Below, in pieces: positions 11,986 to 64,000 of a stretch of 64,000 nucleotides of DNA. Below the pieces are notes generated by a model. That model saw only the letters and a program-made list of their open reading frames with translations. It did not search any database and was not told the DNA's origin. Position 1 is the first letter of the stretch, and each line of letters starts with the position of its first letter. The DNA lies in NCBI GenBank assembly GCA_016186145.1, contig JACPMF010000004.1, positions 345-64,344 of the forward strand. The letters are read 5' to 3'. This stretch comes from Candidatus Sungiibacteriota bacterium (GTDB lineage Bacteria > Patescibacteriota > Minisyncoccia > Sungbacterales > SURF-37). The position numbers and the translations under genes are program-made.

Positions 11986-12043
11986 AACAAGCCGCATATA
12001 AAAATCTTTCATTAACGGCGATGTAACGAAAAAACCCGAACGA

Positions 12044-12206: not shown

Positions 12207-12209
12207 GAG

Positions 12210-13328: not shown

Positions 13329-13407
13329 AGCTTAAGATATTTTTTAAAAACGCGCAAGATGAGGTGTTGAAAACAGTAACTTTTTAATTTATAGTTGCAT
13401 GAGATCA

Positions 13408-13491: not shown

Positions 13492-14200
13492 TTTTGTACC
13501 CAAAACGAAACTAACATTTAAAGAATTCGAATGGACGCCGCAACTTGCTTATGTTGTAGGACTTTTAGTAACCGACGGTAATTTATCTAGTGACGGTCGA
13601 CATATAATAATGCGCTCGTCAGATGTAGAATTGTTGAACACTTTCAAAAATTGCCTTAATATCAATAACAGAATTGGAAGAACACAAAACGGCAAAACGA
13701 TTTCTTATAGAGTACAATTCGGAAGTATACAATTTTACAACTGGCTGAAGAAGATAGGACTATTCCCCGCAAAAAGTTACACGATCGGTGAAATAGATAT
13801 TCCAGATAAATTTTTTAGAGATTATCTTCGTGGATGTATAGACGGCGATGGCAATATTTGTACGTACAAAGATTTATATAACGTATATAAAGGAAGAAAA
13901 TACGTCACTCAGCGACTATTTATAAAAATTGTGTCTGCAAGTAAAAAACATATCGTTTGGCTTCGGAATAAAATTACTGCCCTTAACGGCAGTAACGGAG
14001 CAATAATTAAAGACAGCCCGGCAGATAAACAACGGGTTCCAATGTGGATACTGAAATTTGCCAAAAAGGAATCACTACGGCTTCTCAGTTGGATTTACTA
14101 TCAACCAGACATCCCTTGCCTTGAACGTAAACATATGACAGCTGTGTATGCCATCGAAGAGATTAGCAAACAAAAACGGCGTGTATATTCTAGAATATAA
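13492..14200 (+). CDS. LAGLIDADG homing endonuclease (double-motif), free-standing; start codon uncertain
   Basis: Motif 1 LAYVVGLLVTDGNL and motif 2 YLRGCIDGDGNI. The reading frame is open back into tRNA-Leu and there is no canonical start between the tRNA end and motif 1. Confidence 0.65.
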
Positions 14201-14260
14201 ACACTTGAAGGCAACCTCGTGAGAGTTCAACTCTCTCCCGCGGCATTACGAACCTACTTA

Positions 14261-14290
14261 AACCCCGGCAAAGGCCGGGGTTTAAAATTT
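14261..14290 (+). terminator. rho-independent terminator after the homing-endonuclease gene
   Basis: aaccccggcaaaggccggggtttaaaattt. Confidence 0.6.
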
Positions 14291-14587
14291 ACCCTTTTAA
14301 ACAGGTTTTGGGCAAACGCAATAAAATAATGGGCGCGTCTGGATTCGAACCAGAGTTCCCGGGTGTAGAACTGCGCAGCCGCTTCGCGGCTTGCTCGTTA
14401 CACCCGCGAAAAGTCACCGCACCATCCCGAACAAATTGAGGTTAGGGTGCGCGATCCCGTACTTCCGCGATACTGACTCTGTACCATTACGGGTCAGCAG
14501 TTCGGGAGATGCGGGATCTGCGCCAACTTCTCGCTCCCTCTGGTCGCGGAAGTTGCGGGACTATTTAAACGCTTTTCGCCCTTCTCA

Positions 14588-14706
14588 ATTCATCCCGTTG
14601 GATTTTATAAAAATGGGCACTGCAGGGATCGGACCTGCGGCCTTCACAATGTCAATGTGACGCTCTACCACTGAGCTAAGTGCCCTAGAAAATCTAACGG
14701 GATGTC
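14588..14706. repeat. 16-bp inverted repeat (CATCCCGTTgGATTTT / AAAATCTAACGGGATG) bracketing tRNA-Val; ends resemble the MITE terminal inverted repeats
   Basis: Left 14588-14603 and right 14691-14706; 15/16 matches; the left end is preceded by ATTCAT. Confidence 0.6.
14614..14685 (-). tRNA. tRNA-Val (anticodon GAC)
   Basis: GGGCACTTAGCTCAGTGGTAGAGCGTCACATTGACATTGTGAAGGCCGCAGGTCCGATCCCTGCAGTGCCCA; cloverleaf folds, but the T-loop is TCCGATC (C at position 55, unusual). Confidence 0.75.
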
Positions 14707-35222: not shown

Positions 35223-35720
35223 CTACGGAGTGACAAGGACTGTGAATCCGAGCTTGAGCGGCTCTCCGGCATTATTCTCTATAATTATTGCCCTATGAAT
35301 TCGACCGATCCCCGCAGGACCGTGGGCCGCCGGGTCAAAAACGACGTTAACAACGGCTTCCGCACCCGAAGCTATCGCTTCTTTAATGCTCGGCGAAAAT
35401 CCGTGCCCCGGCATGCCGTACGGACCGAAAACCTTACCCCCCACTTCAAGCGTGGCGCTGGTGCACATGCACGAGGTATACATTTTTTCTATAACCACCG
35501 ATTCTTGCCCGGTGTTTTTGATCCGAAACAAATGACTAACATTCCCGGCCGCCATCGAAACCGTACCAAAGTCAAAATCTTTCTCTTCTGCGCTTATTGC
35601 GCCGGTGGAACCCGAAACCGAAGGGGTGACAATACCACCCTCCGGAGAAGGACGCATGGCCCAAACAATCCCGGCAAAAGCAATTACTCCCGCCGCGATT
35701 CCAATAGTTATTTTATTCAT
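35223..35720 (-). CDS. DUF1573-like secreted/anchored protein
   Basis: FDFGTV...NTG motif; ATGAAT start directly abuts MITE copy C. Confidence 0.55.
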   Translation of the reverse strand: MNKITIGIAAGVIAFAGIVWAMRPSPEGGIVTPSVSGSTGAISAEEKDFDFGTVSMAAGNVSHLFRIKNTGQESVVIEKMYTSCMCTSATLEVGGKVFGPYGMPGHGFSPSIKEAIASGAEAVVNVVFDPAAHGPAGIGRIHRAIIIENNAGEPLKLGFTVLVTP

Positions 35721-35862
35721 CCCGTTAGAAGCAGATCGCGATTAAATATCCACAATCTGCCTTTTTAATTATTTAAGCGTTAATAAAGATTTGTGAATCC
35801 CGAATAATCTCACAAGCAATCGCACCTGCCTACCGACAGGCAGGGCTTCTAACGGGATTCAT
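35715..35862. repeat. MITE-like element, CCCGTTAGAAGC family (copy C)
   Basis: ATTCAT|CCCGTTAGAAGCagatcgcg...cagGGCTTCTAACGGG|ATTCAT; internal hairpin cctgcctaccgacaggcagg. Confidence 0.75.
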
Positions 35863-35953
35863 ATGTTTTTAGGTTAGAGATTGGAATTAACAACAAGCCC
35901 CTTTTAAGGGACAAAGAAAAGACGCTCGACAAGCTAGTTACTGGTAACTAGTT

Positions 35954-36364: not shown

Positions 36365-36584
36365 CCCGTTAGAGACCCGCCTGCCATCGCCTTTGTGTGA
36401 AGAAAGGAGGCGGTTCTATACTTTAACTTACTAATGTGTGATTTCTCAACTCTATAGAAGGGCATATGGCGGGCAGGTAGGACGCGGACGCACAAAACAC
36501 CCAACGCCCTATATTGTTATTGCTTACAAATTTTTACTCTTCTATAAAATTTTATTCGCGTCCGCGATCTCTAACGGGATTCAT
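36360..36584. repeat. MITE-like element, CCCGTTAGAG/CTCTAACGGG family (copy D, 225 bp)
   Basis: cTTCAT|CCCGTTAGAGacccgcctgcc...gcgtccgcgatCTCTAACGGG|ATTCAT. Confidence 0.7.
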
Positions 36585-36752
36585 CCCGTTAGAAGCAGAT
36601 CGCAATCGCATAATTGCTATCTGAATACATTATTGTTCTATATCCCAATAATATTTTATGAATCTCGTAACTTCTACAAGCGATCGCGCCTGCCTGCCTA
36701 CTGGCAGGCAGGCCGACAAGCAGGGCTTCTAACGGGATTCATAACCACAGTA
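36578..36752. repeat. MITE-like element, CCCGTTAGAAGC family (copy E, tandem to D, sharing the ATTCAT junction)
   Basis: ATTCAT|CCCGTTAGAAGCagatcgcaatcgc...gcctgcctgcctactggcaggcaggc...GGCTTCTAACGGG|ATTCAT. Confidence 0.75.
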
Positions 36753-37239: not shown

Positions 37240-37544
37240 TAGATATACATGGATACAAGCATTTTAATATGGATTTGGTGGTCATTATACGATAAAATCA
37301 GAACCTTTTTTGAGCAAAATCCCGATTGATTTACCTAGTCATTCGGGTAGTCATTCACCCTACCTCGGAATGACTACCTTGCGTTTCTAAATCTGCCCAT
37401 CATTCCTATCTTTTCTGACTTAACTACCTCTAAAATCAAAGTCCGACTTTCCTCCTCCGGAGGACTGGCTCGCCGCCCTGCTGGTCGGCTCGCTTGGTCG
37501 CCGAAATTCCTCCCCTCAAACCCCTCCTTCCGGCTCCTTTTCCC

Positions 37545-38420
37545 CTAATTCTTGAGCCTCGAATTCAGGACTTCTTTAAGGGTAATCCCATCTTTGCTTT
37601 TCCATTCCAGTGGGCCAGAAGCAGATCTTCCTAATATGACACCACATGCTGCACTTGAGCTATCAAATACATAATCGTCAGTAAAGACAAGGGTGGTACC
37701 CTGGACACTTAATCGTTGCATTGCCACAAGTTCATCCTTGAGTTTTTTATACGGATGAGTCTGAAAAGACGGCGTTTCTTCTAATGAGGCCGTAGAAGAT
37801 TTCAAAACTTTCATTTTTCCGTCTTCTAAGAGATGGCCCGTAGCTATGATATTGGATCCTTTTTTGCAGATAAAAACCAAAGGGGTAACAGGTGTTTTCC
37901 CAGAAGTAAATTCACTTTGCACAAATATATCGTATCCGAGCAGAGGCATAATTGTTGCTAGGTTTTCATAAAACACCTCTAATCCACTTACATCTTCTTT
38001 TGGGATCGTAGGCACGCCAGGATTGTTAGCATTTTTTAGGTTACACTTCCCGATTTTCTTGAGACGTTCAATACAAACACTTTCGAGGTATTGAATTCCT
38101 GTTTTTGTTAATGATCCATCTTGACTTACAAAAACAACAACATCCTGCCACCAATCTTTTTTATAATCGTGATCTCTAATTCTTTCCTTGAAACCATCAG
38201 CTTCACCAACGTACACATTGAGCAATCCACCTTCATCAGAGCTACCAATGAGAAAGTAAACGCAAGCTCCACTTTCTATTTCAGGCAACGTAATGATTTC
38301 ATTTAAAGCGTTACGAGGGCCACAAATGGCTTTGCCACTCCACTGATCAATCCTCACTTCCCTTACTCCCTTCGGAAGTCCTGCTGCCAAAAAAATTGTG
38401 ATCTTCTTACCTTGATTCAT
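37545..38420 (-). CDS. GIY-YIG nuclease domain protein with a C-terminal DUF4357-like domain
   Basis: CVYFLIGSSDEGGLLNVYVGEADGFKERIRDH (GIY-YIG-like); overlaps the methyltransferase stop by 14 bp. Confidence 0.55.
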   Translation of the reverse strand: MNQGKKITIFLAAGLPKGVREVRIDQWSGKAICGPRNALNEIITLPEIESGACVYFLIGSSDEGGLLNVYVGEADGFKERIRDHDYKKDWWQDVVVFVSQDGSLTKTGIQYLESVCIERLKKIGKCNLKNANNPGVPTIPKEDVSGLEVFYENLATIMPLLGYDIFVQSEFTSGKTPVTPLVFICKKGSNIIATGHLLEDGKMKVLKSSTASLEETPSFQTHPYKKLKDELVAMQRLSVQGTTLVFTDDYVFDSSSAACGVILGRSASGPLEWKSKDGITLKEVLNSRLKN

Positions 38421-39603
38421 AAGTTTTTTTCGGTTTTAGAAGCAGCACTAGTTCTTCCGACTTTACTCTAGATTTCTTCTCGCGGTTATGTTTATTAAAC
38501 TTATTATTGCCACCTAAGGTACTGAATCTGCCAATCACATGCTTGTGAATGCGGCTTTTATTTTTATCCAGATTAAAATATTTTTTAGCCAATTCAATAA
38601 CCTTATCTCCAGACAATCCATTGCTAGATTTTCCTTTAGGAAAGGTAAAAATAACTTTAACCTTCTTTCTCGACAGGCCGGATAAGAGTTGCTCTAAAGC
38701 TTTATATGATTGTCCCGCATTACTAAATTCTGATTGTGGACGCTCAGATATATCCGGATAACGTCCAATACCGGTAACTTCTCCGCAGTAACCACGTGCA
38801 ATTGTTTCAAGTACATGATAAAAACGACTATATTGGACACCGGAATAGGGCGGATCAAGAAGAACCAAATCTCCTCTTTTTAATTTAGGTATTAATTTTT
38901 TAGCGTCTGAAACCATCGCCCTACCTTTTACTTTCGCGTGTAGAGGGACGAGTTCTTTTAACGCGCTATCGCAGGATTTAAAAATATCAGTGCGCCATGC
39001 AATTTCAATAAATTTTCCGGCCCCGGCAGTTGGCTGAAAAGGTTGGGCGGTATGTCCAGGAGCAGCAGCAGCCCTAGAAGCAGCAATTATGGTTGCTGCT
39101 AAGCAAATATCTCTGTATTTAGTTTGCTTAGGTAATGTATTTAAAAGATAGTCGATGGTAATGGCTTGTTTCGGACTAAAATAATGGCCTCCGTAAGCAC
39201 GCCAAACGGGACCAATCTTAGAGGGAGTTTTGCAAAGTTTCCTTGCCGCATTAACTCTCAACTTTATTTTTCCGGAATACTTTTGATCTACTCCATTGGC
39301 TTTATTTAGAAGCTTCGAAGTATTTAGTTTCTTTTTTGCTTTCTCTATCCAAGCTCTCTTTAAATATTCCGCATCGAATACCTTAGTGCGTCCAATTACG
39401 GCTCTTGCGAGAACAACAGCGTATTTTTGCAGATCACCTGCAATAATTTCGCCTTTAAAATTCAGATTTTTAGCAACAAAATTTATTACTCCTCCGGAAC
39501 CGCAAAATGGGTCAATGAATCTATTGGCATACGGAAGCTGCTCACGGAGTAAGTCTCCGAGACCATTGCTCAACATAAACCTTTTTGAACCCATGTATTT
39601 CAT
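38407..39603 (-). CDS. DNA N6-adenine methyltransferase, Dam-like (D12 class)
   Basis: Motif I FIDPFCGSGGV and motif IV LLDPPYSG; N-terminus KYMGSKRF as in Dam; ATGA overlap with the upstream gene. Confidence 0.85.
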   Translation of the reverse strand: MKYMGSKRFMLSNGLGDLLREQLPYANRFIDPFCGSGGVINFVAKNLNFKGEIIAGDLQKYAVVLARAVIGRTKVFDAEYLKRAWIEKAKKKLNTSKLLNKANGVDQKYSGKIKLRVNAARKLCKTPSKIGPVWRAYGGHYFSPKQAITIDYLLNTLPKQTKYRDICLAATIIAASRAAAAPGHTAQPFQPTAGAGKFIEIAWRTDIFKSCDSALKELVPLHAKVKGRAMVSDAKKLIPKLKRGDLVLLDPPYSGVQYSRFYHVLETIARGYCGEVTGIGRYPDISERPQSEFSNAGQSYKALEQLLSGLSRKKVKVIFTFPKGKSSNGLSGDKVIELAKKYFNLDKNKSRIHKHVIGRFSTLGGNNKFNKHNREKKSRVKSEELVLLLKPKKTYESR

Positions 39604-40940
39604 AGGCAAAGTTGCGAAAGAGCTATTCTTTCGCATCCCGATAGCGCCAACAGCTCTGTTGCGAAATTTGAACGCCATTGGTAGTGATTGTTTACAGAAG
39701 AAGAACTACTGCTCATACTTGCCAGCGCTTCTTCCACTTCAATCCACATATCAGAGATGGGATTTACTTGCCCGGGCTCCCATAGTCCATAATTTTCTCC
39801 TAATGTTTCCCACCAAAATTTTATGTCGTTTCTTGAGATACGAGCGTTTTCAATCATAGTCATCCCTGCTCCTGTTGCTAACCTTAAAAGTAGAGTCGCC
39901 CTGCTCAACATCTGAATATGATAATCAGGATCAGTCGTTTTCCCCTTTTTACTTGCTTCGACAATCAACATAGGATCTCTTTGCTGTGTTTTTCGACTAA
40001 AAATCTGAGTTAGGGTGGTTAGTTCAGGATCACTTATGCCAAGATCTGTAAGTATTTTTCTAATCTGAGATTGCGAGAGTTGCCCGTTATTATATTTTTC
40101 CCAGCTCAATCTTAATAAAAAGGTATCTGCGACAAAACCACCAGTTCCATTCATGCTACACATGCGCCATATATTTTCTACTATCCCCAAAGAATTCCTG
40201 ATCTGAATAGAATTCCTAAAACTAAGGTCGTTCAAAATACCGCTTGGTCTATAGCTTGCGTGTTCACGTGCAGATTGATCTATTCCCAATGTTGTTATGT
40301 CGTACCCCCAATGTTTAAGCCAATCTTTTGCTAAATAATTGAGTGGCGCTGTTGAGATCTCAGAAAACCAAGTTTCTAAAGTTATACTATTAGGCCGAAT
40401 AATTTTTTGAAATAGTCTTCCAGAATCAGGGCGACCGAGCCAATCAATAAATTGCTTTCTTACTAGTGCGTGGGTTTTTTCTGAAATCGGCCCGTAAATA
40501 TCTGAAGACTTTCCATTAGCACCCACTATTGAAAAATGTTTTGCACTGAAAACACCTATGCCATCACTTGCAAGTAAAGACATCACAGCTCTCAGTTGGG
40601 CATAATATGCAAAATGCTTACAAGCCTGGATGTCGCCAACGGCATGACTAATTATAGCTTTACCCAAGAAACTCCAACCATCCACGCAGTGTAAGGGAAC
40701 TGAAGCGGCTATGTACTCTGCTAATTGAGTTTTTTTAGGTCCCGTTATTCGGTGAGGTGCTCTTCTGGGACAATCCTTTTCTATTTTTTCCGTACAGTTT
40801 TTTGCATATCTATTTTGAACACCAAGCCAGCCACCCCTTACAAAGTGTCTTTTAAGACGATTAAAGGTTTCTTGGGTAGCTATCCGAGAATAATGTCTAG
40901 TTGAAAATTTATCTGGCATTCTTGGCATCTTCTTTAGCAA
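39600..40940 (-). CDS. hypothetical protein (446 aa) inside the defence cassette
   Basis: No recognisable motif; translationally coupled between the DGQHR and methyltransferase genes. Confidence 0.5.
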   Translation of the reverse strand: MLKKMPRMPDKFSTRHYSRIATQETFNRLKRHFVRGGWLGVQNRYAKNCTEKIEKDCPRRAPHRITGPKKTQLAEYIAASVPLHCVDGWSFLGKAIISHAVGDIQACKHFAYYAQLRAVMSLLASDGIGVFSAKHFSIVGANGKSSDIYGPISEKTHALVRKQFIDWLGRPDSGRLFQKIIRPNSITLETWFSEISTAPLNYLAKDWLKHWGYDITTLGIDQSAREHASYRPSGILNDLSFRNSIQIRNSLGIVENIWRMCSMNGTGGFVADTFLLRLSWEKYNNGQLSQSQIRKILTDLGISDPELTTLTQIFSRKTQQRDPMLIVEASKKGKTTDPDYHIQMLSRATLLLRLATGAGMTMIENARISRNDIKFWWETLGENYGLWEPGQVNPISDMWIEVEEALASMSSSSSSVNNHYQWRSNFATELLALSGCERIALSQLCL

Positions 40941-42444
40941 ATCCTAAAATCTTATATGTTTCTCTGGCAAGACTGCCAAAATCTTTACTAATAAAAAGGT
41001 GTTTTAACAGTTGACGCCTAAATTGTTTATAACCACTACCTCCTCGATAGGAAAGTTTAAGAACAAGATCATCTTCGCTTAATCCTTTCGCCGCTGAAGA
41101 TCTCCAATCAAATTTAGACAATTCTTTGGCAAGTTTAAATACAAAATCAGCAAGTATTTTTTTCTTCTTTAAATCTTTAAGTTCCGATGCTGAGCTCGAC
41201 TCCGCGTTCGGATTCCACTCTTGTAATCTCAACTTTTCTCGATTGATAAATAGTAGATCATTTGTAACATTTAAAACCACAGAAATTCCTTGGTCATTGT
41301 TAAGCATTGTGTAAGGACCAACAAACGCAGGATCTCCGCTGACTGCCTTTTTATATTCTTGTTTCTTGGCATCGCGCAACTCAAGAGCCCACTTTGCCTT
41401 AGATTTTCTAACAGCGTCCCTTAATTCGTTCCAGAGATAAATAAGCAGGGCCGCTTGTTGGCTTTTATTCCAAGGAATTGCAATTTTATCCTGACCAACC
41501 GGTGCTCCAAATAGTCCGCCGATAGATATGCCTCTACCCTCAAATGACTTAACGTATGTTTTTAATAAAGCTCTTACCCAAGCTGCTTGAGTAACAGAGG
41601 GACCACCACTTTCCCCAAGCATGTTGATTCTATCGTACCAAGCACTATCCTTTTCTGACCATAGTATCTCAACTAGCTCTTGTGCTCGAGTTTCTCGGTA
41701 AACCTTATGGCCTTCAAATCTCTCAAGCCAATCTTCTGTCCGAAGTAAGGGGTACAGATCAAAAGCAAGGCTTGGGTTAATTCTTTTGGGCTTAATATTG
41801 ATTGTCCAAAAAAGATACGCTTGCCAACTTATATCAAGACCGTAAAATGCAACAACTGGAAGTTCATAATCTTCAGCAATACTTTTATCCTCAAACGCTA
41901 ACAGTCGGTGTTGCCCATCAATAATCTCAATGGGAAGTCTCTGTTTGGCCTGCCAGGTATTTGAATTATTAAAAGAAGCTGGCAACTGAACCTCGGCTAT
42001 GTTTCCTGCTAAATCCCTTACAGTCACTAGATCGTTCGGATCAACCCTTTCTCCATCACGCGTATCTTTGGCAGCTAAAATATTTACAACGATAGCTGTA
42101 GGTAACCAGCCTGGCTTTTGTAAATCATCAAACCTTTTCTCCTTACGTTGGGAATCAGTCAAATCTGACCAGGGATATCCGTATTTTATGTATTTCGCAA
42201 TTTTTTCTGATCGTGACGGTTCGTGAGCTCGTTGTAAACCGGTCCGCGACGCTAGACTCCTGCGATAGACACCTGAGAGTACCTGAAGTTGACGGGCGGA
42301 AAGTGAAAAAACGTAAAAATGATTTTGAGGCTCTCTACGATGCTCATTATTACTCCACTGAACAGAATCCCAGCCTTTAAGCCATTGGTTCACTTTTAAG
42401 GCCTGTATCTTATTTGGTTTGCGAGGCTGGGACTTCTTTTTCAT
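40909..42444 (-). CDS. DGQHR-domain protein (DndB-like, ParB-like nuclease superfamily)
   Basis: Exact IIDGQHRLLAF motif; 511 aa. Confidence 0.8.
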   Translation of the reverse strand: MKKKSQPRKPNKIQALKVNQWLKGWDSVQWSNNEHRREPQNHFYVFSLSARQLQVLSGVYRRSLASRTGLQRAHEPSRSEKIAKYIKYGYPWSDLTDSQRKEKRFDDLQKPGWLPTAIVVNILAAKDTRDGERVDPNDLVTVRDLAGNIAEVQLPASFNNSNTWQAKQRLPIEIIDGQHRLLAFEDKSIAEDYELPVVAFYGLDISWQAYLFWTINIKPKRINPSLAFDLYPLLRTEDWLERFEGHKVYRETRAQELVEILWSEKDSAWYDRINMLGESGGPSVTQAAWVRALLKTYVKSFEGRGISIGGLFGAPVGQDKIAIPWNKSQQAALLIYLWNELRDAVRKSKAKWALELRDAKKQEYKKAVSGDPAFVGPYTMLNNDQGISVVLNVTNDLLFINREKLRLQEWNPNAESSSASELKDLKKKKILADFVFKLAKELSKFDWRSSAAKGLSEDDLVLKLSYRGGSGYKQFRRQLLKHLFISKDFGSLARETYKILGFAKEDAKNAR

Positions 42445-42515
42445 ATAATTTATTTAGATTTTCTACATCTATATAATAGCAAGTTGAGATCTGCTAAGCA
42501 TGTTTCTTTATAATA

Positions 42516-42731
42516 TTAAAATTTGGCAAAAAAGTTTCCGATTTTTAAATTTAAAGCCTTCGCAATTTTTTCTATATTTTCCAATGTTATATTTTTCTCG
42601 GCTCTCTCAATCATGCCGATGTAAGTCCTATGAACGCCAGCGCGGGTGGCTAGTTTTTCTTGAGATAATCCTAATTTAGTTCGCTCCTCACGAACTCTTT
42701 TGCCAAATTTGATTAAGATTTCTCGTTTCAT
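42516..42731 (-). CDS. XRE-family HTH transcriptional regulator (controller-protein-like), first gene of the cassette operon
   Basis: 71 aa; canonical XRE HTH (LGLSQEKLATRAGVHRTYIGMIERAEKNITLENIEKIAKAL). Confidence 0.8.
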   Translation of the reverse strand: MKREILIKFGKRVREERTKLGLSQEKLATRAGVHRTYIGMIERAEKNITLENIEKIAKALNLKIGNFFAKF

Positions 42732-43032
42732 AGTTGATAACTATAGTATATGCACTTGCTAACTTTGGTGCTACATACTATAGTTAGCATAGTTTGAGGG
42801 GAGGAATTTCGGCGACCAAGCGAGCCGACCAGCAGGGCGGCGAGCCAGTCCTCCGGAGGAGGACTTTGTGGAAAACAGTAGAAGTGTGGAATGGGGGCGT
42901 AGCGTAGTGAAGTCGGACTTTGATTTTAGAGGTAGAAACGCAAGGTAGTCATTCCGAGGTAGGGTGAATGACTACCCGAATGACTAGGTAAATCAATCGG
43001 GATTTTGCTCAAACGGCGTCCGAACAGTCTCA

Positions 43033-43098
43033 TAAAGACACCACAATTCAAAACTTTTCGACTTGTCCCCGGTGAAAAAGGCGAAAAGTTTTGAATTG
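43033..43098. repeat. long hairpin (ccacaattcaaaacttttcg ... cgaaaagttttgaattgtgg) between tRNA-Ala and the right repeat of the cassette
   Basis: 20-bp perfect inverted repeat around a 26-nt loop. Confidence 0.5.
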
Positions 43099-43170
43099 TG
43101 GACCGGATGGGATTCGAACCCACGGTCTCCTCAATGCCATTGAGGCGCTTTACCACTAAGCTACCGGCCC
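43099..43170 (-). tRNA. tRNA-Ala (anticodon GGC)
   Basis: GGGCCGGTAGCTTAGTGGTAAAGCGCCTCAATGGCATTGAGGAGACCGTGGGTTCGAATCCCATCCGGTCCA. Confidence 0.85.
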
Positions 43171-49845: not shown

Positions 49846-49930
49846 AAACTGAAACATGGTGTCCCTCTCTCTAGAGAGGGACTTATTTCCAAGGAAGTAT
49901 TTAAAAGCTATCTTAAAAATCATTTTTTCC

Positions 49931-50027
49931 GCGTTTTTCCGCGTAGCATTCCGCACTTATCCGCGGAGTCTCCGCGGAAGTGTGCAGATTGCAACGCAGA
50001 TTTATGCGGAAATTGAATTTTGAGATG
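49931..50027. repeat. about 95-bp inverted repeat, left arm, flanking the yeaH-like gene
   Basis: About 88% identical to the reverse complement of 51638-51728; contains the palindrome ccgcggagtctccgcgg. Confidence 0.7.
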
Positions 50028-51637: not shown

Positions 51638-51728
51638 CTCAAATTCAATTTCCGTGTAAATCCGCGTTGCAATCTGCGTGTTTCCGCGGAGACTCCGCGG
51701 ATCAATGCGGAATGCTACGCGGAAAAAC
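51638..51728. repeat. about 95-bp inverted repeat, right arm, flanking the yeaH-like gene
   Basis: See 49931-50027. Confidence 0.7.
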
Positions 51729-51829
51729 GCTGATATAGAACTTTTGAGATGGCTTCAAGAAGCCAAGGTTGAGCCGGGCCCCGACTCCGTCGGGGCTTTT
51801 CTATAACGGTTACAGAAAGAAAGGAGGAG

Positions 51830-55915: not shown

Positions 55916-56160
55916 TTGGGTGCGCCTGGATTTGAACCATCAACCTAAAATAAAAATGGGTCAGGATGGACTCGGACCATCGATCCCCAAGGTACCGCGC
56001 CCGACTTCGCCTTGACGAATAAATTTTGCGAGCGCCTGGATTCGAACCAGGAACCCCGGAGGTATAAGCTCCGTGCTCTAACCGTTGAGCTACGCTCGCG
56101 TAGCGGCGAAGTCAAGGCGGGCGGGTAAGCTCGATGCTTTAGCCGCTAAGCTACTGACCC
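55916..56160 (-). pseudogene. tRNA-like half-fragments bracketing an intact tRNA-Ile(UAU): 5-prime half at 56101-56160, 3-prime half at 55957-56026, and an extra 3-prime fragment at 55916-55956
   Basis: 5-prime half GGGTCAGTAGCTTAGCGGCTAAAGCATCGAGCTTACCC... and 3-prime half ...GATGGTCCGAGTCCATCCTGACCCA have complementary acceptor strands. Their inner ends also base-pair with each other (GACTTCGCC with GGCGAAGTC, CGCCC with GGGCG). Fragment GGTTGATGGTTCAAATCCAGGCGCACCCA duplicates the tRNA-Ile 3-prime end. Confidence 0.45.
56027..56099 (-). tRNA. tRNA-Ile (anticodon UAU)
   Basis: GCGAGCGTAGCTCAACGGTTAGAGCACGGAGCTTATACCTCCGGGGTTCCTGGTTCGAATCCAGGCGCTCGCA; anticodon loop CTTATAC. Confidence 0.8.
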
Positions 56161-58234: not shown

Positions 58235-58831
58235 TTACCAGACTCTGAAATGACGGCGGATGGCAACCTCCCCATTCCCGAGTGACGAGGTTTCGAAAAA
58301 GCAAACATGGCGATTAATATCTAAAAATTGAACAAGAAAATCAATTTCATCCTCACAGGGGTAGGGGTACGCGAAAACGCTTTTTTGTAAACCGAATAGC
58401 CCCAAATCTTTGAGCCGGTCGCTAAAAATTCTCCTCTCCTTCTTCTTATTTTCCGGGATGTCGAAAATGACCACCCGCCACTTCTTATCCCACCGCCGCG
58501 GTTTTTCCGGTAACCGCAACGCATCAAATTCAAATTTACGCAGTTTCTTCCGACCGCTTTCCGTAATTACAATATATGTTTCATTTCCGCGTTGTTCGTA
58601 TTCCACATATCTTCTCTTCCGTAGACGCTCAATACCCCTTTGGAGCTGCCATTGCCCGTATTCGCGACGCAATCGCGCCGGATCACTCCGAAGAATCGGC
58701 GCAAGCAATATTCCCATATTCGGCGCCACCAACATTGATGCCACAACCGCACCGCCGCCGACAATCTTCAAAATATCCAGCGCAATAGATCCGTAATGAA
58801 TATCTCTCCCCATACAAAACGAACCTATCAA
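58235..58831 (-). CDS. membrane-anchored winged-helix plus Cas2-fold-like (PaaX-C-like) domain protein
   Basis: KKWRVVIFDIPENKKKERRIFSDRLKDLGLFGLQKSVFAYP resembles the Cas2/PaaX C-terminal pattern; N-terminal TM. Confidence 0.4.
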   Translation of the reverse strand: MIGSFCMGRDIHYGSIALDILKIVGGGAVVASMLVAPNMGILLAPILRSDPARLRREYGQWQLQRGIERLRKRRYVEYEQRGNETYIVITESGRKKLRKFEFDALRLPEKPRRWDKKWRVVIFDIPENKKKERRIFSDRLKDLGLFGLQKSVFAYPYPCEDEIDFLVQFLDINRHVCFFETSSLGNGEVAIRRHFRVW

Positions 58832-59064
58832 ACACTTTCTATCGTGTCAAATAAGTCCTATAGGATCTATTTGGCGGATGTGAAAGTTCGAAAAAAACGG
58901 AGCTCTTTCGACGGAGTTCTTGCGGAGGAAATTAAAAAACGGGCTCTGGCGAATCGCTCGATAGCGATCACCAGAACCCGCGCTTGTCCTCCGAAGCGCC
59001 TGTGCGCGTAGGAGGATGTTACTTGCCCGCCCCGCTTAGAAGCGGGACGGGGCTAATTGTTGAA

Positions 59065-60405
59065 CTACTCGTCGTCCTGGCGGCTCGAATCGCCGCGGCG
59101 ACCGCGACCACCCTTGCCACCCTTGCGACCCTTGGCCTGGCGGGGTCCCCGGTCCTCGTCGGACCGGTGGTAGCGCGGCGTCTGCGGCTTGAACTGCCGC
59201 TGGTCGCCGGCCGGGGTCTGCGACTGGAACTTCCAGCCGCCGGCCTTCCGGAAGAGAACCATCAGGAAGACCATCGGCCTCCCGTCTTCCATGGCCTGCA
59301 TGCCGTCGAAGCTGTACTTGAGCTTCCACTGGAAGAGCGTTGCGGCTCGCGCCTCACGCTCCTCTGTCGCCGGCTTCGCAGTGAACCGGGCGAGCCCAGG
59401 CCACACCGAGCCCACCGCGCCGAGGAGCTCGCCCTTGGCGATCCCCTGGCCGTCCACGCCGTGGTACCGAACCCACCCGGTGCCCTCGAGCTGATAGCCC
59501 GACCGCGTGTCTTTGAAGTCTTGCTCACGCTTGAGCACGAACTCCACGACATCACCGATGTTGAGCTGGCCGGCGTCCAGATCGGCGAGCGTCTTGCCCT
59601 CGACGGGCTTGAACTGCTCGCGGTACTTCGCGAGAAGCGCTTCGCTCGCCTCACGCTTCTCAGCGTAAGTCTCCTTGGTCACCCTCTGATGCGTGACCCA
59701 CGCGCCGATCAGCGTATCCGCGACCTTCGGGTCATACCCTTCGGGCTTCGGCTCGTCCTTCCCGAAGTACCTCTTCGCGAAGTGCCGATAGGCTCTGGTG
59801 TTGCCGACGACCGGCAACGACCAGATCGTCTGCGGCTTCGCGGGCGGCCGCGGGGCATCCGGGATGTCCGCCTCTTCGTCGCCCTTCTCGACGACGGCGC
59901 CGTACATGGCGTCGTAGTCGGCCTTCTCGGCCTCGTACTTCACCATCTTCGGCTTCCATTCGTCCCAGGCCGTGCGATTGGCCTGCTTTTCCGCATCGTC
60001 CACCCCACGCATGATGCCGCGGGCGATGAGGTCGTCGATGACCTCGTGCGCCTCGGGCAAGGTGTAGAGCCCGGCGATGAACGCCGAGTACACCTCCGGA
60101 AGCGAACGGATCTTGGCCATCACGACGGCGATCTGCTCGCGGAACGACACCGCTGCGGCATCGTCGTGCTTCTTCTCGGCCTCGCGGAGGCCGTTCTTCC
60201 TCTCGGCAAGAGCCGTGAGGAACTTTTCCGTCAGCGCATCCCGCTTGACTTCGTCAGCGAGGACGCGCTTCACCGGCGCCGGCTTCGGCGTTCCGGTGGT
60301 CACCTGCTGGGCCGCTGGCCGCGGCCTCTCCACGATCGCGATCGTCGGCAGTGCGACGACCGCTTCGAACGCCTTCTCGATCTCCTTCAGGTCCATCAGG
60401 TCCAT
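59065..60405 (-). CDS. hypothetical protein with a C-terminal RG-rich tail, in a high-GC (about 65%) island
   Basis: 446-aa ORF with normal amino-acid composition; the overlapping plus-strand ORF is R/L/P-rich antisense junk. Confidence 0.5.
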   Translation of the reverse strand: MDLMDLKEIEKAFEAVVALPTIAIVERPRPAAQQVTTGTPKPAPVKRVLADEVKRDALTEKFLTALAERKNGLREAEKKHDDAAAVSFREQIAVVMAKIRSLPEVYSAFIAGLYTLPEAHEVIDDLIARGIMRGVDDAEKQANRTAWDEWKPKMVKYEAEKADYDAMYGAVVEKGDEEADIPDAPRPPAKPQTIWSLPVVGNTRAYRHFAKRYFGKDEPKPEGYDPKVADTLIGAWVTHQRVTKETYAEKREASEALLAKYREQFKPVEGKTLADLDAGQLNIGDVVEFVLKREQDFKDTRSGYQLEGTGWVRYHGVDGQGIAKGELLGAVGSVWPGLARFTAKPATEEREARAATLFQWKLKYSFDGMQAMEDGRPMVFLMVLFRKAGGWKFQSQTPAGDQRQFKPQTPRYHRSDEDRGPRQAKGRKGGKGGRGRRGDSSRQDDE

Positions 60406-60447
60406 CTTTCCCCTCCTGGGAATGGCGCATTGCTACGCCGGTTATGT

Positions 60448-61044
60448 TTAGGTTTCAGCCAAGAGAGCGCGAATTTCTTCGGCACCCCGCTCGGCTCTCA
60501 TCAAAAGCTCGCTCTTCCCCCCTTTCGGTTCTTCCGACACGCAATCACCGTTTGACCGGCAATGCGCATCGAGTTTTTCGATTTCCTCTTCGGACAACCT
60601 GTAAGCGCCCTTCCCAAGAGGAAAGAGCACCAGCTCTTCCGCCCAGCACTCCGCAAACCTCCCGTTGTTGATAAAAAGCGTTGCCTTGCCGAGCTGGTCA
60701 ACTTCCCACACCCCGACAATGCGTTGCCAGTCGCTATCAAAAAAAACTGCGTGTTCGCCAATCGGAGATCGTGAAGAACCGACTATATCCTTTGCCTTGT
60801 AAGCAGAAGAAGGTACGAAAAAGTTCTCACCGACGAAACCGAGGACCTGCTCGTTCGGAACATCCTCGTCCGAATAACCTCTCGGGCCGAGAAACCGAAC
60901 CTTGACGGACTCGCCGCCGTTGTCATCAGAAAAAAGAAGGAATCCAAACCTTCGTCCTTCCACTCCCTTGGTTGCCGTTCCGCAATGCGCGCAAACCTCG
61001 TCGGCTGGCACGCGGACGGCGACCCGCTTCAGTCCGTGAACCAT
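60448..61044 (-). CDS. hypothetical protein (GC-rich island, second gene)
   Basis: 198 aa; CAHCG motif. Confidence 0.45.
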   Translation of the reverse strand: MVHGLKRVAVRVPADEVCAHCGTATKGVEGRRFGFLLFSDDNGGESVKVRFLGPRGYSDEDVPNEQVLGFVGENFFVPSSAYKAKDIVGSSRSPIGEHAVFFDSDWQRIVGVWEVDQLGKATLFINNGRFAECWAEELVLFPLGKGAYRLSEEEIEKLDAHCRSNGDCVSEEPKGGKSELLMRAERGAEEIRALLAET

Positions 61045-61293: not shown

Positions 61294-61890
61294 TTAACGG
61301 GCCAAATAGTTATGAGCTATCCCGAATTCACTAAGACGATGTGCAAGAAGGTCGAGCGGCAAGCCCAGCACATTAAAATAGTCCCCTTGAATACGGTCAA
61401 CAAAAAGACCCGCCAAACCCTGTACCGTGTAACCGCCGGCCTTGCCGAACGGCTCCTGTGACTTAACGTATGCGTCTATTTCTGCGTCGGAAATCGGTTT
61501 AAAAGAGACGAACGTTTCAACGGCATCCACGACAAATTGGTGCGTATCGGCATCATACAAAGAAAGACCGGTTATGACGCTGTGCGTGTCGCCGTTCAGC
61601 TTCTTTAGCATTTCTTTGGCATGCGCCGCGCTTTGGGGCTTGCCAAAAATCTCGCCATTATGAAACACAACGGTGTCTGCGCCGACAACAAGAGAACCCG
61701 AAAACCTCTCGGCAACGCCCTTTGCTTTTGCGAGCGCCAGGGTCTTCACTAATTTCTCCGGGTCCCCGATTTCAACTGCCCGCTCGTCAAAATCGCTCGG
61801 TTGAACGATAAACTCAAAACCGAACTTTTTAAAAAGTTCCTGGCGTTGAAGTGACGACGATGCAAGTATGATTTTTTTACTAATCGGCAT
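61294..61890 (-). CDS. maf: Maf-like nucleoside triphosphate pyrophosphatase
   Basis: ILASSSLQRQELFKKFGFEF..., GADTVV; start set at MPISKK. Confidence 0.85.
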   Translation of the reverse strand: MPISKKIILASSSLQRQELFKKFGFEFIVQPSDFDERAVEIGDPEKLVKTLALAKAKGVAERFSGSLVVGADTVVFHNGEIFGKPQSAAHAKEMLKKLNGDTHSVITGLSLYDADTHQFVVDAVETFVSFKPISDAEIDAYVKSQEPFGKAGGYTVQGLAGLFVDRIQGDYFNVLGLPLDLLAHRLSEFGIAHNYLAR

Positions 61891-62025
61891 ACTTAATAGT
61901 TTAACAAAAATCTTGGTGCTGTAATTATACACTTCGCGCGAACCTTTTTTGAGAAGAACTGACCGCCTCCGCTTCGCTCCGACGGAACGCTCGGGCGCGG
62001 CGGAATTCCCCCCACACCCCCCTTC

Positions 62026-62065
62026 CGCCGCGCCTTCGCGGGAAGCCACAATTTTTTCGCCGCCA
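62026..62065. repeat. 40-bp perfect inverted repeat (left arm), CGCCGCGCCTTCGCGGGAAGCCACAATTTTTTCGCCGCCA
   Basis: Reverse complement is identical to 63961-64000 at the window end; this GC-rich repeat sits in AT-rich DNA. Confidence 0.75.
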
Positions 62066-62067
62066 AA

Positions 62068-63681
62068 TCAAATAATTTTAGCTTCTCTCAAAACCTGTCT
62101 AACGCTTTTATTACAGTTATGAATTTTCTCCAAAGCCAGCTTTGCTTGTTTCTTGCTGATAAAGCCCACCGTAACTTCGCGCGCTAGACGCGTAGCGTCT
62201 GGATGAAAACCGAGCATTCGTCTTGCTTTATTTTCTGCCGCTTTCGCAAAAAGACAAGAGTTCGCATTTGATTCAATCAACCTTTCGCCTCGTGGAATTT
62301 TCCACCCCAATTTCCTTAAAATCTTCTCCGTATCTTTAATTGTTCTTTGCAAAAGAAAGGGCAGGTGAACGATATAGACAGGCGGCTTGTTTTTGAATGG
62401 TTGTAATTTCCGAGTTGCCGAAAAAACAAACTTTTTTGACTCACCATCTTGGCTTAATCCAGCCCATTCGTTAATACCTAAAATAATCACACCAACACCA
62501 TGTTTTTGCGCCTCTCCGTAGTATGAACGAATAACAAGCCGCCTGCATAATTGGCAAGTTCTTATAAATGGAATTTTGTGCTGACATTTTGCCGAATAGT
62601 GCCTCCTGCCCTCCACATACCATTTTCTAAATTTTTCTTTTAACTCTAGCGAATCACGTTCATCGTATAAGTCAGCCGTTTTTTCGAAACAAATACGATC
62701 AACTGGTCGCATATATTTTCTCGCATCGATTTTTTCGTAATCAACATCAAGCTGTTTTGCTACTTGTTTTGCCCTCTGAAAAATATGTTTTGGGTAATAG
62801 CGTGTATCAAGTGAAAAAGCCAAAGGCGTAAATCCCATACGTTTAGCTTCATGGAGAGTGGCAGTGCTGTCTTTGCCGCCAGATATACCAACCATTGCAT
62901 CGTATTTGCCACGACCAGAACTCCTAAGCGAAAGTAGAAATTCTAACTCTTTTCTCAAATGTTCTTTGCTAAAGTTTTTTTCGTATCTTTCACAAACATC
63001 ACATAAACCGGATTTCTCTATCGTGCTAGACATATTAGTGCTGACATTTACGCATTTCTTGCACTCTACCGCTTCAACCAATGCTTTGATTTGATTAACG
63101 ATTTCTTTCTTGATTGTAACAGCCGTGTTGAAAGAAATATGAGCGATTTTTTCTACTTTATTTGTCGAAAAAAGACGCTCCTCAATTTGCCGTTCTTTTT
63201 CTGCTTCTTTTTGTGAGAAACTTTCTCGCTTGGAGACACGCACCGAAAGATGTTTGTCGGGAGTTTTCAAATAAACAACAAGGTAGCCATTCTTTTTGAA
63301 ATGAGTTGAATTTTTATAACCCCTGATTCCTGCGATTACAATAAACTTTTTAGAAAATGTTTTTTGATGAATATGAATTATTGTTTTCGCAATAACCGAC
63401 GAGGAATAACGGTTTTTGAGATGAGAGAAAAAATTGCGAGCTTCCTCGCGATCAATTTTCTGTTTAATCTTTTTCCCGTAGAGTTTATTTATTTGTTGGA
63501 TAAAACCACTTTCATTTTCTGACAACTTTTCCTTAATGGAAGCGGCGGGGTTTATAACCGTATTAAACGCCTCGATATATTTTGCATCAAGAAAAGAAGC
63601 CAAGAACAATTTGGCTATGGTTGTCTTGCCGCTTCCGGGGGCTCCAAAAACCGCTATTCCTTTGTATTTTCTTTTTATCAT
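62068..63681 (-). CDS. fusion protein: N-terminal P-loop kinase-like domain plus zinc ribbon plus TtcA/TtuA(Ncs6)-like PP-loop ATPase
   Basis: Walker A GAPGSGKTT; CKKC...CDVC zinc ribbon; PP-loop VGISGGKDS; then CQLCRRL (compare TtcA CSLCSRL). Confidence 0.65.
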   Translation of the reverse strand: MIKRKYKGIAVFGAPGSGKTTIAKLFLASFLDAKYIEAFNTVINPAASIKEKLSENESGFIQQINKLYGKKIKQKIDREEARNFFSHLKNRYSSSVIAKTIIHIHQKTFSKKFIVIAGIRGYKNSTHFKKNGYLVVYLKTPDKHLSVRVSKRESFSQKEAEKERQIEERLFSTNKVEKIAHISFNTAVTIKKEIVNQIKALVEAVECKKCVNVSTNMSSTIEKSGLCDVCERYEKNFSKEHLRKELEFLLSLRSSGRGKYDAMVGISGGKDSTATLHEAKRMGFTPLAFSLDTRYYPKHIFQRAKQVAKQLDVDYEKIDARKYMRPVDRICFEKTADLYDERDSLELKEKFRKWYVEGRRHYSAKCQHKIPFIRTCQLCRRLVIRSYYGEAQKHGVGVIILGINEWAGLSQDGESKKFVFSATRKLQPFKNKPPVYIVHLPFLLQRTIKDTEKILRKLGWKIPRGERLIESNANSCLFAKAAENKARRMLGFHPDATRLAREVTVGFISKKQAKLALEKIHNCNKSVRQVLREAKII

Positions 63682-63935
63682 ACGAAAAAATCTAGACTTT
63701 TCTTGTAGAGTCGCGCAAAAGCCTTAAGTTCTACAACATCAACTCTACGCTCTCCACGCTCGATTTTTGAAATATATGATTGAGGCTTGCCTAGCTTTTG
63801 CGCGACGTCTTCTTGTCTCAAACCAGCGTTTTCTCGCGCTTTTCGTAGGTTTTCCACAACCTTTTTGTATTCTGCTCCGTAAATACTCTTTGGCATATTG
63901 AATATATCATAGTATCCTATTGTGGTATATACCAA
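63678..63935 (-). CDS. XRE-family HTH regulator
   Basis: LRKARENAGLRQEDVAQKLGKPQSYISKIERGERRVDVVELKAFARL; 4-bp overlap with the downstream gene. Confidence 0.6.
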   Translation of the reverse strand: MVYTTIGYYDIFNMPKSIYGAEYKKVVENLRKARENAGLRQEDVAQKLGKPQSYISKIERGERRVDVVELKAFARLYKKSLDFFV

Positions 63936-63960
63936 AACGGGTTATGCTTATTTTATGAAT

Positions 63961-64000
63961 TGGCGGCGAAAAAATTGTGGCTTCCCGCGAAGGCGCGGCG
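63961..64000. repeat. 40-bp perfect inverted repeat (right arm, truncated by the window end)
   Basis: See 62026-62065. Confidence 0.75.

Follow-up and report, generated by a model that had tools for sequence, protein, structure and literature searches.

We analyzed a 64,000-nt stretch of a Candidatus Sungiibacteriota contig (JACPMF010000004.1; hereafter, the window), and we report here on the two-gene unit bounded by inverted repeats at its right end. The unit starts at position 61920 and is expected to run past 64000, because its right-hand repeat, which the window end cuts, is complete in a 91%-identical cassette at another locus (L129). It holds a gene for an XRE-family regulator and a gene for a 537-aa fusion of a P-loop kinase-like domain with a PP-loop ATP pyrophosphatase domain; the two open reading frames (ORFs) overlap by 4 nt (ATGA), and both lie on the minus strand between the repeat arms. 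In our assessment, the unit is probably a member of a cassette family of groundwater bacteria of the candidate phyla radiation (CPR, Parcubacteria-type), and its cargo a purine-nucleotide enzyme. Its features, in order of position, are:

61920-62066, minus strand: cargo-side terminal inverted repeat (TIR), complete, delimited by blastn to the family consensus and an alignment of 50 distinct copies
61924-61929, minus strand: -10-like box (TATAAT) that faces outward at the outer TIR end; the start codon of the Maf gene (61896) follows about 30 nt downstream
61994-62034, minus strand: main hairpin of the TIR, read from the sequence, with a 10-12-bp G+C stem GGCGCGGCGGAA / TTCCGCCGCGCC around a G-rich loop
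62068-63681, minus strand: cargo gene for the 537-aa fusion, with a P-loop small-molecule-kinase-like domain (aa 1-200), a zinc ribbon (aa 207-230) and a PP-loop ATP pyrophosphatase domain (aa 255-537)
62254-62586, minus strand: second cysteine set, C366, C376-x2-C379 (RTCQLCRR) and C476, invariant in an alignment of 30 homologues
62866-62883, minus strand: PP-loop SGGKDS (aa 267-272), invariant in the 30 homologues and aligned to the PP-loop of TtcA and of the N-acetyl sugar amidotransferase (NASAT), QueC and NadE models
62992-63063, minus strand: zinc ribbon C207-x2-C210 ... G225-x-C227-x2-C230, invariant in the 30-homologue alignment
63678-63935, minus strand: XRE-family helix-turn-helix (HTH) regulator, the cassette head gene (HTH_3, E 1e-16), an 85-aa ORF from TTG at 63935
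63906-63935, minus strand: promoter-like TTGGTA-18-TATGAT from a promoter scan, overlapping the palindrome TTGTGGTATATACCAAAA (63910-63927)
63960-64000, plus strand: XRE-side terminal repeat, of which the inner 41 nt are within the window (query positions 1-41, 93% identical to the consensus)

A repeat search of the window returned the inverted arms as 62026-62076 and 63950-64000, which are 51 nt long and 94% complementary. By eye, the exact inverted core is 41 nt (62026-62066 against 63960-64000), the right copy ending with the window. A 39-mer of this core occurs exactly on both strands and had no match in 100 shuffles. A preliminary description of this DNA, made from its letters, had placed 40-bp inverted repeats around the XRE and 537-aa genes. 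The repeat search and the shuffle test bear out their position, but not their size, as the 41-nt match is the inner third of an arm of about 148 nt (61920-62066) that is 91% identical to the 150-nt family consensus (blastn, query positions 1-148). The inner tip of this arm, TTGGCGGCGAAAAAATTGTGGC, begins 1-2 nt past the stop codon of the fusion gene. The module has a G+C content of 38-41%, against about 47-48% around it. The loci compared with the window, which carry L numbers, are short-read metagenome contigs, except for L001, which is a complete Sungiibacteriota genome (CP066690). In L001, L003 and L004, the fusion gene is accompanied by the same roughly 150 nt of G+C-rich DNA 3' of its stop codon (window 61924-62076), and the sequence beyond differs.

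The stem of the main hairpin is 98% paired across 50 copies of the repeat, with one compensatory GC to AT pair in 3 copies, and the fold has a z-score of about -2. Judged by pair counts on the specified hairpins, stem variation over the 50 copies is too low to tell an RNA role from a DNA role. RNAalifold on the same copies gave a poor consensus without covariation, and 61800-64000 had no Rfam match at E<=1. A TATAAT or TAGAAT box at the outer end is retained in nearly all copies, divergent variants included; in the window, it is a possible promoter for the flanking Maf gene. At the other end of the unit, the true start of the XRE gene is probably the ATG at 63897, giving a protein of 72 aa, the length at which the gene was called in L058. 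The palindrome TTGTGGTATATACCAAAA in its promoter region is also kept in L058 and L059 and is likely the operator of the XRE protein.

The repeat recurs elsewhere. A scan of a metagenome collection with its 22-nt tip TTGGCGGCGAAAAAATTNTGGC yielded 91 loci, most of them from groundwater samples, Hainich included, and only 3 of them carry the fusion or its XRE gene. Sixty-five aligned copies yielded the 150-nt consensus, which has a sharp inner boundary; a near-invariant 45-nt tip is followed by a G+C hairpin of 10-12 bp, then by another hairpin region around GCGAAGC, and last by the outer end TTCAAAAAATGTTCGAGCAGAGTTGTATAAT. Among the loci collected, we counted 137 copies of the repeat at 97 loci, with 39 complete inverted pairs. 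An XRE gene comes first next to one arm and reads inward in every complete pair (39/39), followed on the same strand by one to four cargo genes that end a few nt from the other arm. The cassette interiors measure 1172-2182 nt, have a mean G+C content of 38.6% and hold 30 distinct cargo types.

By Pfam, the cargo includes several NUDIX proteins, Nuc_deoxyrib_tr (nucleoside 2-deoxyribosyltransferase-like) proteins, alone or fused to NUDIX, ASCH and NTPase_I-T. Among repair functions, DNA_alkylation (AlkD-like) proteins occur in at least six cassettes, and DinB is also present. The remainder comprises S-adenosylmethionine-dependent methyltransferases, HAD, APH, GrpB and RibD_C/DHFR-like proteins, SDR and saccharopine dehydrogenases, a serine hydrolase, MFS transporters and DUF3800. 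The unit in the window, with the same repeats, recurs at 91-92% DNA identity in three independent samples (L058, L106 and L129), which supports the earlier proposal that the repeats bound a discrete unit. Logan contigs of 1.94-1.97 kb also hold the XRE and fusion genes at 90-92% identity. In L058, both contig ends lie in the inverted repeat, which would be expected where a repeat breaks an assembly graph. A search for flanking inverted repeats at 32 other homologous genes found none outside the XRE-bearing clade.

The preliminary description had read the XRE regulator, together with the repeat boundaries, as a sign of mobile cargo. The XRE gene is not a dedicated partner of the enzyme: as a generic head gene it comes first in all 39 complete cassettes, and beside the enzyme gene at other loci it is missing or decayed. 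In L003 and L004, for example, nothing but a degraded 3' piece of it remains, behind a tRNA gene.

No more than two units were seen adjacent to each other (L131 and L094), and no long arrays were seen. In L094, at 181-245, two inner tips of 30-39 nt are joined outer end to outer end in a palindrome of about 65 nt, with the outer 110 nt missing; this is apparently a minimal boundary between two adjacent cassettes. In L150, the two arms of one cassette (463-614 and 2167-2318) differ by an inverted loop of the main hairpin (GGGGGGTTTAAGGGGGG versus CCCCCCTTAAACCCCCC), a flip/flop state that resembles hairpin ends copied by strand transfer. Together, the flipped loop and the tip junction suggest an active role for hairpins and tips as DNA structures. 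We also considered the arms as halves of a palindromic target split by insertion, and rejected this: the 91 loci include no empty full-arm tip-to-tip palindrome, and the minimal junction in L094, where two 35-nt tips meet between adjacent cassettes, was the only one seen.

That the units are mobile cargo, as the preliminary description had suspected, is supported by the 30 cargo sets found within the same repeats, by a cassette that recurs with other flanks, and by identical flanks around unlike cassettes. One cassette (99.1% identical over 1.1 kb) has different flanks in L149 and L079 than in L071 and L082. Flanks that are 99.5-100% identical hold different cassettes in two pairs of loci: in L147 and L149, these stand beside the same gene in opposite orientations, and L132 and L094 share 3.7 kb of identical DNA upstream of rpsL. 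Cassettes often lie 85-125 nt downstream of the 3' ends of tRNA or tmRNA genes.

Beyond the XRE-side arm, at least 10 loci have a 114-nt spacer and, directed away from the cassette, a gene for a large serine recombinase. This recombinase has 500-530 aa and Resolvase, Recombinase and Zn_ribbon_recom domains. L129 is one of these loci, and its XRE-side arm is 128-150 nt long. The XRE end faces the recombinase in 10/10 loci, an agreement for which random orientation would give a chance of about 0.002. The spacer belongs to a second inverted repeat (114-115 nt, 92-100% complementary), of which it forms one arm while the other starts at the 3' end of a tRNA gene, and the recombinase gene is therefore itself repeat-bounded; near-perfect pairs lie at 1099-1212 and 2627-2740 in L107, 4091-4204 and 5645-5758 in L114, and 400-514 and 1925-2039 in L138. 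This repeat and the cassette arms both contain GCGAAGC, a motif that forms an exceptionally stable DNA mini-hairpin. The recombinases are 88-100% identical at five different tRNAs, and a second type, 47-48% identical, occurs on the cargo side in 3 loci. None of the 97 CPR loci has an adjacent DDE transposase; their outer neighbors are diverse host genes and serine recombinases.

Turning to the cargo in the window, we found 292 homologues of the fusion protein that are 47-92% identical over the full length, mostly 530-545 aa long, and of the same architecture. Their hosts are Sungbacteria, Harrisonbacteria, Paceibacteria, Yanofskybacteria and Vogelbacteria as well as the archaeal Woesearchaeota, Micrarchaeota and Nanoarchaeota. 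The N-terminal kinase fusion had been called unusual; it is a conserved architecture of the family across CPR bacteria and DPANN archaea, not a one-off. The motifs picked out from the letters for the 537-aa protein, namely the Walker A (G13-K19), the zinc ribbon, the PP-loop and a CxLCRRL-type motif, are all present and invariant in 30 homologues. When the PP-loop half was compared with 1.84 billion representatives, 47 clusters (at 50% identity) were retrieved at E<=1e-30, about half of them fused and half stand-alone proteins of about 330 aa, and past these there was a sharp fall to proteins that share the first ~115 residues only. Saccharibacteria and ARMAN-5 also have stand-alone forms, as do a few actinomycetes, namely Streptomyces thermocoprophilus, Sphaerisporangium and one metagenome-assembled genome of the Micromonosporaceae. 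One distant relative, P0134 (878 aa), has an extra N-terminal TCAD9/APH protein-kinase-like domain ahead of the P-loop kinase and PP-loop domains; TCAD9 is a domain known from biological-conflict systems.

Matches of the fusion to Pfam and NCBIfam models are weak. Over its N-terminal 200 residues, the protein is similar to P-loop kinases of the AAA_18, shikimate-kinase and cytidylate-kinase type. The best hidden Markov model (HMM) match of the C-terminal part is TIGR03573 (NASAT, WbuX) at E 1e-18, with 67.7 bits against a cut-off of 203.2 and coverage of profile positions 4-142 of 344 only. NASAT proteins have the zinc-binding signature CxxCxn[GN]xCxxC (PMC10607449). The fusion carries this tetracysteine signature (C207KKC ... 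G225LC227DVC230) followed by SGGKDS, and the roughly 40 neighborhoods examined contain no glycan genes of the O-antigen or nonulosonic-acid context typical of NASAT. Plasmid-borne NASATs, 29% identical over the first third only, are the sole plasmid matches and distant ones.

The preliminary description had likened the C-terminal half to TtcA/TtuA. This stands for the CxxC motif: hhalign against E. coli TtcA (probability 95%, 102 columns, to be taken as a lead) runs from the PP-loop through the CxxC, and in this alignment and in the NCBIfam TtcA profile C376 and C379 fall on the CxxC that ligates the TtcA cluster. C476 lies outside the TtcA alignment, 97 residues past the CxxC, with a spacing about as for the distal cysteine of TtcA. 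We regard the second cysteine set as a candidate iron-sulfur (Fe-S) or second metal site. The likeness does not extend to the family as a whole, since the NCBIfam TtcA model (PRK10696) scores 19.4 bits against a cut-off of 272, around residues 358-402 (profile positions 106-150). For QueC (7-cyano-7-deazaguanine synthase), the Pfam model scores 23.6 bits against a cut-off of 22 over positions 2-96 of 210, the generic PP-loop part, and NCBIfam TIGR00364 scores 21.3 against 150.3.

Structure comparison also placed NASAT first. An AlphaFold (AF2) model built on the alignment, with a predicted local distance difference test score (pLDDT) of 88.6, had as its top Foldseek match in the PDB the Legionella NASAT 8wex (E 5e-9), followed by TtuA (E 1e-5 to 4e-4). 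The N-terminal domain matched dephospho-CoA, cytidylate, adenylate and gluconate kinases, with weak matches to PSTK, T4 PNK and Pnkp. Thus, the nearest relative of the PP-loop half by sequence and fold is the NASAT family, not TtcA/TtuA. The domain combines a NASAT-like front with a TtcA-like CxxC and lies below the curated cut-off of every named family; as had been anticipated, the protein is not a housekeeping TtcA from end to end. The fusion is a member of an uncharacterized branch of PP-loop ATPases.

Gene neighborhoods recurrently indicate nucleotide metabolism. In six independent loci, a 200-aa protein with MGS and AICARFT_IMPCHas N-terminal domains is encoded directly upstream of the enzyme gene, usually overlapping it. 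Five of these loci have the stand-alone enzyme (L018, L019, L021, L023 and L032), and one has the full-length fusion (L155/L156). By eye, this neighbor retains the catalytic Lys/Tyr/Asp/Lys, and it resembles a stand-alone inosine monophosphate (IMP) cyclohydrolase. A gene for Ham1, a pyrophosphatase of inosine and xanthosine triphosphates, overlaps the enzyme gene in L001 and follows it in L025, a Saccharibacteria contig. HD hydrolase genes adjoin it in L004 and L025, and a phosphoribosyltransferase gene overlaps it in L029. In L027 (Streptomyces thermocoprophilus, 3162-5897), a uridine-kinase-family gene overlaps a stand-alone PP-loop homologue. In the window, the next gene downstream of the fusion is Maf. 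In the sibling cassette whose XRE is closest to that of the window (90% identical), an NTPase_I-T inosine/xanthosine triphosphatase takes the place of the enzyme. Three different enzymes of hypoxanthine or xanthine nucleotides are therefore linked to the PP-loop gene, and three routes that make nucleoside monophosphates (NMPs) adjoin the PP-loop domain, namely the fused kinase, the phosphoribosyltransferase and the uridine-kinase-type enzyme.

Some further observations concern these homologues. The L027 homologue (48% identical) stands directly after a DDE transposase gene and overlaps a 109-aa ORF too, which suggests a small transposon-associated accessory operon in an actinomycete. The uridine-kinase pair of L027 was also considered as a split form of the fusion and rejected, as BLASTP against the N-terminal kinase domain gave no significant similarity. 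In the L001 genome (CP066690), 21 tRNA genes lie within 3 kb (11698-14596), about 2 kb downstream of the fusion copy. At 80-92% identity, the fusion gene is found in unrelated contexts.

Because the partner genes are IMP-cyclohydrolase-like, Ham1, HD, phosphoribosyltransferase and uridine kinase genes, we read the enzyme as one that would serve nucleotide salvage or pool repair, being neither a tRNA enzyme nor a defense gene. To judge from the same partners, the likeliest substrate is a purine nucleoside or nucleotide with a 6-oxo or 2-oxo group, of the IMP, xanthosine monophosphate (XMP) or 5-formamidoimidazole-4-carboxamide ribotide (FAICAR) type. The kinase domain, of the shikimate, gluconate or NMP-kinase type, would phosphorylate a nucleoside or nucleotide. 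The PP-loop domain would then adenylate a carbonyl or carboxyl oxygen of an IMP-, XMP- or FAICAR-type purine nucleotide, and the activated oxygen would be displaced by nitrogen, or by sulfur if the second cysteine set binds an Fe-S cluster.

The cassettes share one organization, in which a hairpin-forming terminal repeat of about 150 nt is followed by a promoter and XRE repressor gene, one to four same-strand cargo genes, and the repeat in inverted orientation. This architecture is shown by the comparisons, as are its recurrence, the range of cargo, the changes of context and the recombinase neighborhood; for the mechanism, we propose the following. The XRE protein would autoregulate the cassette through the palindrome in its own promoter. 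The hairpins of the arms may stop transcripts from running out of or into the cassette, and the flanking gene may regain its transcription from the outward -10 box; we infer this insulation and flanking drive from the cassette-facing hairpins and the outward -10-like box. The invariant 40-nt tip, which holds an imperfect palindrome around AAAAAATTTT, is likely the recombination site, because it is the exact point at which conserved sequence switches to variable sequence. Cassettes would move or be swapped as units between chromosomal sites, often downstream of a tRNA or tmRNA gene and beside a serine recombinase. The agent is probably either this recombinase or homologous recombination across the two identical arms; since the arms are inverted, recombination between them would flip the cargo and never delete it.

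Several points weigh against this reading. The window contains no recombinase, and the right flank beyond 64000 lies outside it. Neither a recombination event nor a circular intermediate was seen, and no target-site duplication was found at the 16 repeat pairs inspected, where the outer ends are defined within a few nt. The 150-nt repeat can cause mis-joins in assembly, and some of the pairs with the same flank and different cassettes could be chimeric; the consistent 10/10 orientation relative to the recombinase argues against random assembly joins. In L119, L138, L140, L150 and L099, the two arms of one cassette share private insertions or substitutions, which whole-unit movement or gene conversion between arms fits better than simple att-site recombination. 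The consensus promoter scan of the window missed the outward promoter, which has a poor -35. As to the enzyme, whose proposed role is read from gene context, there is no substrate-level homology; the neighborhoods of several homologues (P0098, P0105 and P0075 among them) were uninformative, and the conserved cysteines are compatible with either a zinc or an Fe-S site.

Taken together, we favor membership in the groundwater CPR cassette family with a purine-nucleotide enzyme as cargo, as stated at the outset. A more specific version is put forward only tentatively. In it, the cassettes would form a CPR exchange system analogous to integrons in function but of different construction: units with their own XRE regulator between 150-nt hairpin arms would be captured, moved or swapped near tRNA genes by the large serine recombinase, whose gene has a second inverted repeat around it. 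The kinase/PP-loop cargo would be a new enzyme of folate-independent purine salvage that acts together with the stand-alone IMP cyclohydrolase.

Among the alternatives, the preliminary description had raised an XRE-controlled mobile module for anti-phage defense or counter-defense that modifies nucleic acids, and we consider this unlikely. XRE-headed operons are typical of defense systems, and the XRE protein matches the HTH, CapH and C-protein models of PADLOC. The other repeat-bounded module of the window (37309-43013) encodes a DndB-like protein, a D12 methylase and a DUF4357 protein; an OLD-like ATPase is found close to one homologue, and P0134 is fused to the TCAD9/APH-like kinase domain of conflict systems. 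PP-loop QueC-like proteins are also reported to function in QatABCD (PMC13376578). However, the fusion protein has no significant match in PADLOC or PHROGs and was not found in the viral contigs or phage records searched. A nuclease or other effector partner is absent from the unit, the sibling cassettes carry mostly housekeeping-like hydrolases and repair enzymes, and the recurrent partners of the enzyme listed above favor nucleotide salvage and pool cleaning over defense.

We give little credence to a non-autonomous transposon, such as a mobile insertion cassette (MIC) or a cargo-bearing miniature inverted-repeat transposable element (MITE), moved in trans by a DDE transposase, with the serine recombinases merely co-located at tRNA-proximal hot spots. 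Such an element would have the terminal inverted repeats, transposase-free interior, many copies and varied cargo observed here, and would account for arms that share private variants as if the whole unit had been copied, and for the same unit in different flanks. It would not account for the lack of target-site duplications at the 16 pairs or of a DDE transposase beside the 97 CPR loci. Moreover, the 150-nt structured arms are far longer than typical insertion sequence (IS) ends, and insertion at tRNA 3' ends is typical of site-specific recombinases.

We find it very unlikely that the gene is a housekeeping tRNA thiolase of the TtcA/TtuA/Ncs6 type with an extra kinase and that the repeats are terminators around a normal operon. 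The alignment of the PP-loop and CxxC to TtcA, the Foldseek matches to TtuA (E 1e-5 to 4e-4) and the weak N-terminal fold matches to PSTK, T4 PNK and Pnkp point in this direction, as does a family that is widespread and conserved in reduced genomes, often with tRNA genes nearby. These nearby tRNA genes are explained by the insertion preference of the cassettes, because cassettes with unrelated cargo show it too. The TtcA score of 19 against a cut-off of 272, with about 100 columns aligned, the patchy distribution of the gene (47 clusters among 1.84 billion representatives), its unrelated contexts at 80-92% identity and the 30 unrelated cargo sets enclosed by the repeats all argue against it.

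Least probable of all is that the inverted repeats form an invertible DNA switch by which a recombinase flips the 1.9-kb segment and turns genes on or off: the repeats are long and perfect, a serine recombinase stands beside many copies, one site shows opposite cassette orientations (L147 and L149, though with different cargo) and a hairpin loop is flipped in L150, but orientation relative to the recombinase is single in 10/10 loci, the sole opposite case is a different cassette, the recombinases are large ones with Recombinase and Zn-ribbon domains (integrase/transposase type) and not small Hin/Gin invertases, and flipping would change nothing outside or inside the cassette because it has its own promoter and regulator and both its arms present the same outward sequence.

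Among known systems, the cassette family resembles integron cassettes in its small units of one to three genes, its diverse accessory cargo (NUDIX, DinB, methyltransferases and hydrolases), its structured palindromic boundaries, the adjacent and divergent site-specific recombinase gene, and the presence of different cassettes at the same chromosomal site. Integron cassettes, however, have one 3' attC, are usually promoterless, and depend on the tyrosine recombinase IntI with attI, whereas the cassettes described here have two inverted arms of ~150 nt and a promoter and XRE gene of their own, and the recombinase beside them is a large serine recombinase. The pdif modules of Acinetobacter plasmids, which are bounded by 28-bp sites and use the host XerC/XerD recombinases, likewise are discrete, recombinase-free units with varied cargo, inverted sites and differing contexts and orientations. 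They differ from the 150-nt hairpin arms with an outward -10 box, chromosomal and tRNA-adjacent, of the present family, in which no Xer-type site was recognized.

Elements with large serine recombinases (SCCmec with CcrAB, Tn4451 and Tn5397 with TnpX and TndX, and serine-integrase islands) share the recombinase domains, the variable cargo and insertion at the 3' end of a conserved gene. Their recombinase is inside the mobile unit, which has short imperfect end repeats and a 2-bp crossover, whereas here cargo and recombinase each lie within their own near-perfect inverted repeats (150 nt and 114 nt). MICs and cargo MITEs have terminal inverted repeats, passenger genes and no transposase inside, but the present cassettes have longer structured arms and a uniform XRE head, and no target-site duplication or matching IS was found at the loci examined. 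Overall, the family sits among mobile gene cassettes but fails the defining features of integrons, MICs and invertons.

Similar comparisons apply to the enzyme. It shares with NASAT (WbuX, PseA and WbpG; TIGR03573; PDB 8WEX) a tetracysteine zinc motif followed by SGGKDS, but its second half is unrelated and has a TtcA-like CxxC, it is fused to a kinase, and it has no polysaccharide context. With TtcA/TtuA/Ncs6, it shares the PP-loop, an N-terminal zinc finger (as in TtuA) and CxxC(S/R)RL(R) at the equivalent position, but the alignment stops after the CxxC, the context is nucleotide metabolism, and the family is small and patchy rather than universal.

The window has other features of note. 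A second repeat-bounded module, with the same layout as the cassettes, lies at 37309-43013, within an unrelated repeat of about 200 nt (37309-37521 and 42792-43013, 98-100% complementary). It has a G+C content of 39-41% and contains, in this order, an XRE gene (42516-42731, minus strand), a DndB-like gene (40909-42444), an ORF of 446 aa with no assigned function, and D12 adenine methylase and DUF4357 genes. It stands 85 nt from the 3' end of tRNA-Ala(GGC) (43098-43170), and a cassette of the main family occupies the same tRNA-Ala(GGC) site in L134. A 93-nt inverted repeat (49928-50020 and 51641-51733, 89% complementary) exactly encloses a DUF444 (YeaH-like) gene in what looks like a conserved PrkA - DUF444 - SpoVR operon; because this gene is bracketed, repeat-bracketing in the source genome is not confined to obviously foreign cargo. 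A dispersed repeat with GCTTCTAACGGGATTCAT has at least five intergenic copies on both strands, including 4690, 9986-10117, 35715-35864 and 36558-36744.

Closer to the cassette, an island of 65% G+C (58984-61044) in a genome of about 48% holds ORFs of 446 aa (59065-60405) and 198 aa (60448-61044), which have no Pfam, PADLOC or PHROG match; the same genes occur in the Logan contig L057. A 198-aa protein encoded at 58235-58831, beside FtsH, has a PaaX central Cas2-like domain (E 4e-20) and weak Cas2 matches, and no CRISPR array or other cas genes were found near it. A 5.6-kb Logan contig that matches FtsH ends inside Maf, and an exact-sequence look-up of the fusion protein returned nothing. The tRNA-Ile at 56027-56099 has the anticodon UAU (tat). 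Some bacteria without the lysidine synthase TilS use tRNA-Ile(UAU).

Full-text literature searches returned no description of either the cassette family or the enzyme family, and the cassette family is apparently large and undescribed. CPR bacteria and DPANN archaea have tiny, host-dependent genomes that are thought to be poor in classical mobile elements, and how they shuffle accessory genes is little understood. A uniform cassette family that is easily recognized with a 22-nt probe offers a handle on their flexible gene pool and a candidate recombination system, and its cargo has a theme of nucleotide-pool cleaning and DNA-damage repair. The 150-nt insulating arms and XRE switches might become genetic tools for organisms that now have none. 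The link between the enzyme and a stand-alone IMP cyclohydrolase makes it testable how these symbionts interconvert scavenged purines, and, if the proposal is true, a purine-salvage enzyme would close a gap in how CPR and DPANN symbionts metabolize nucleotides.

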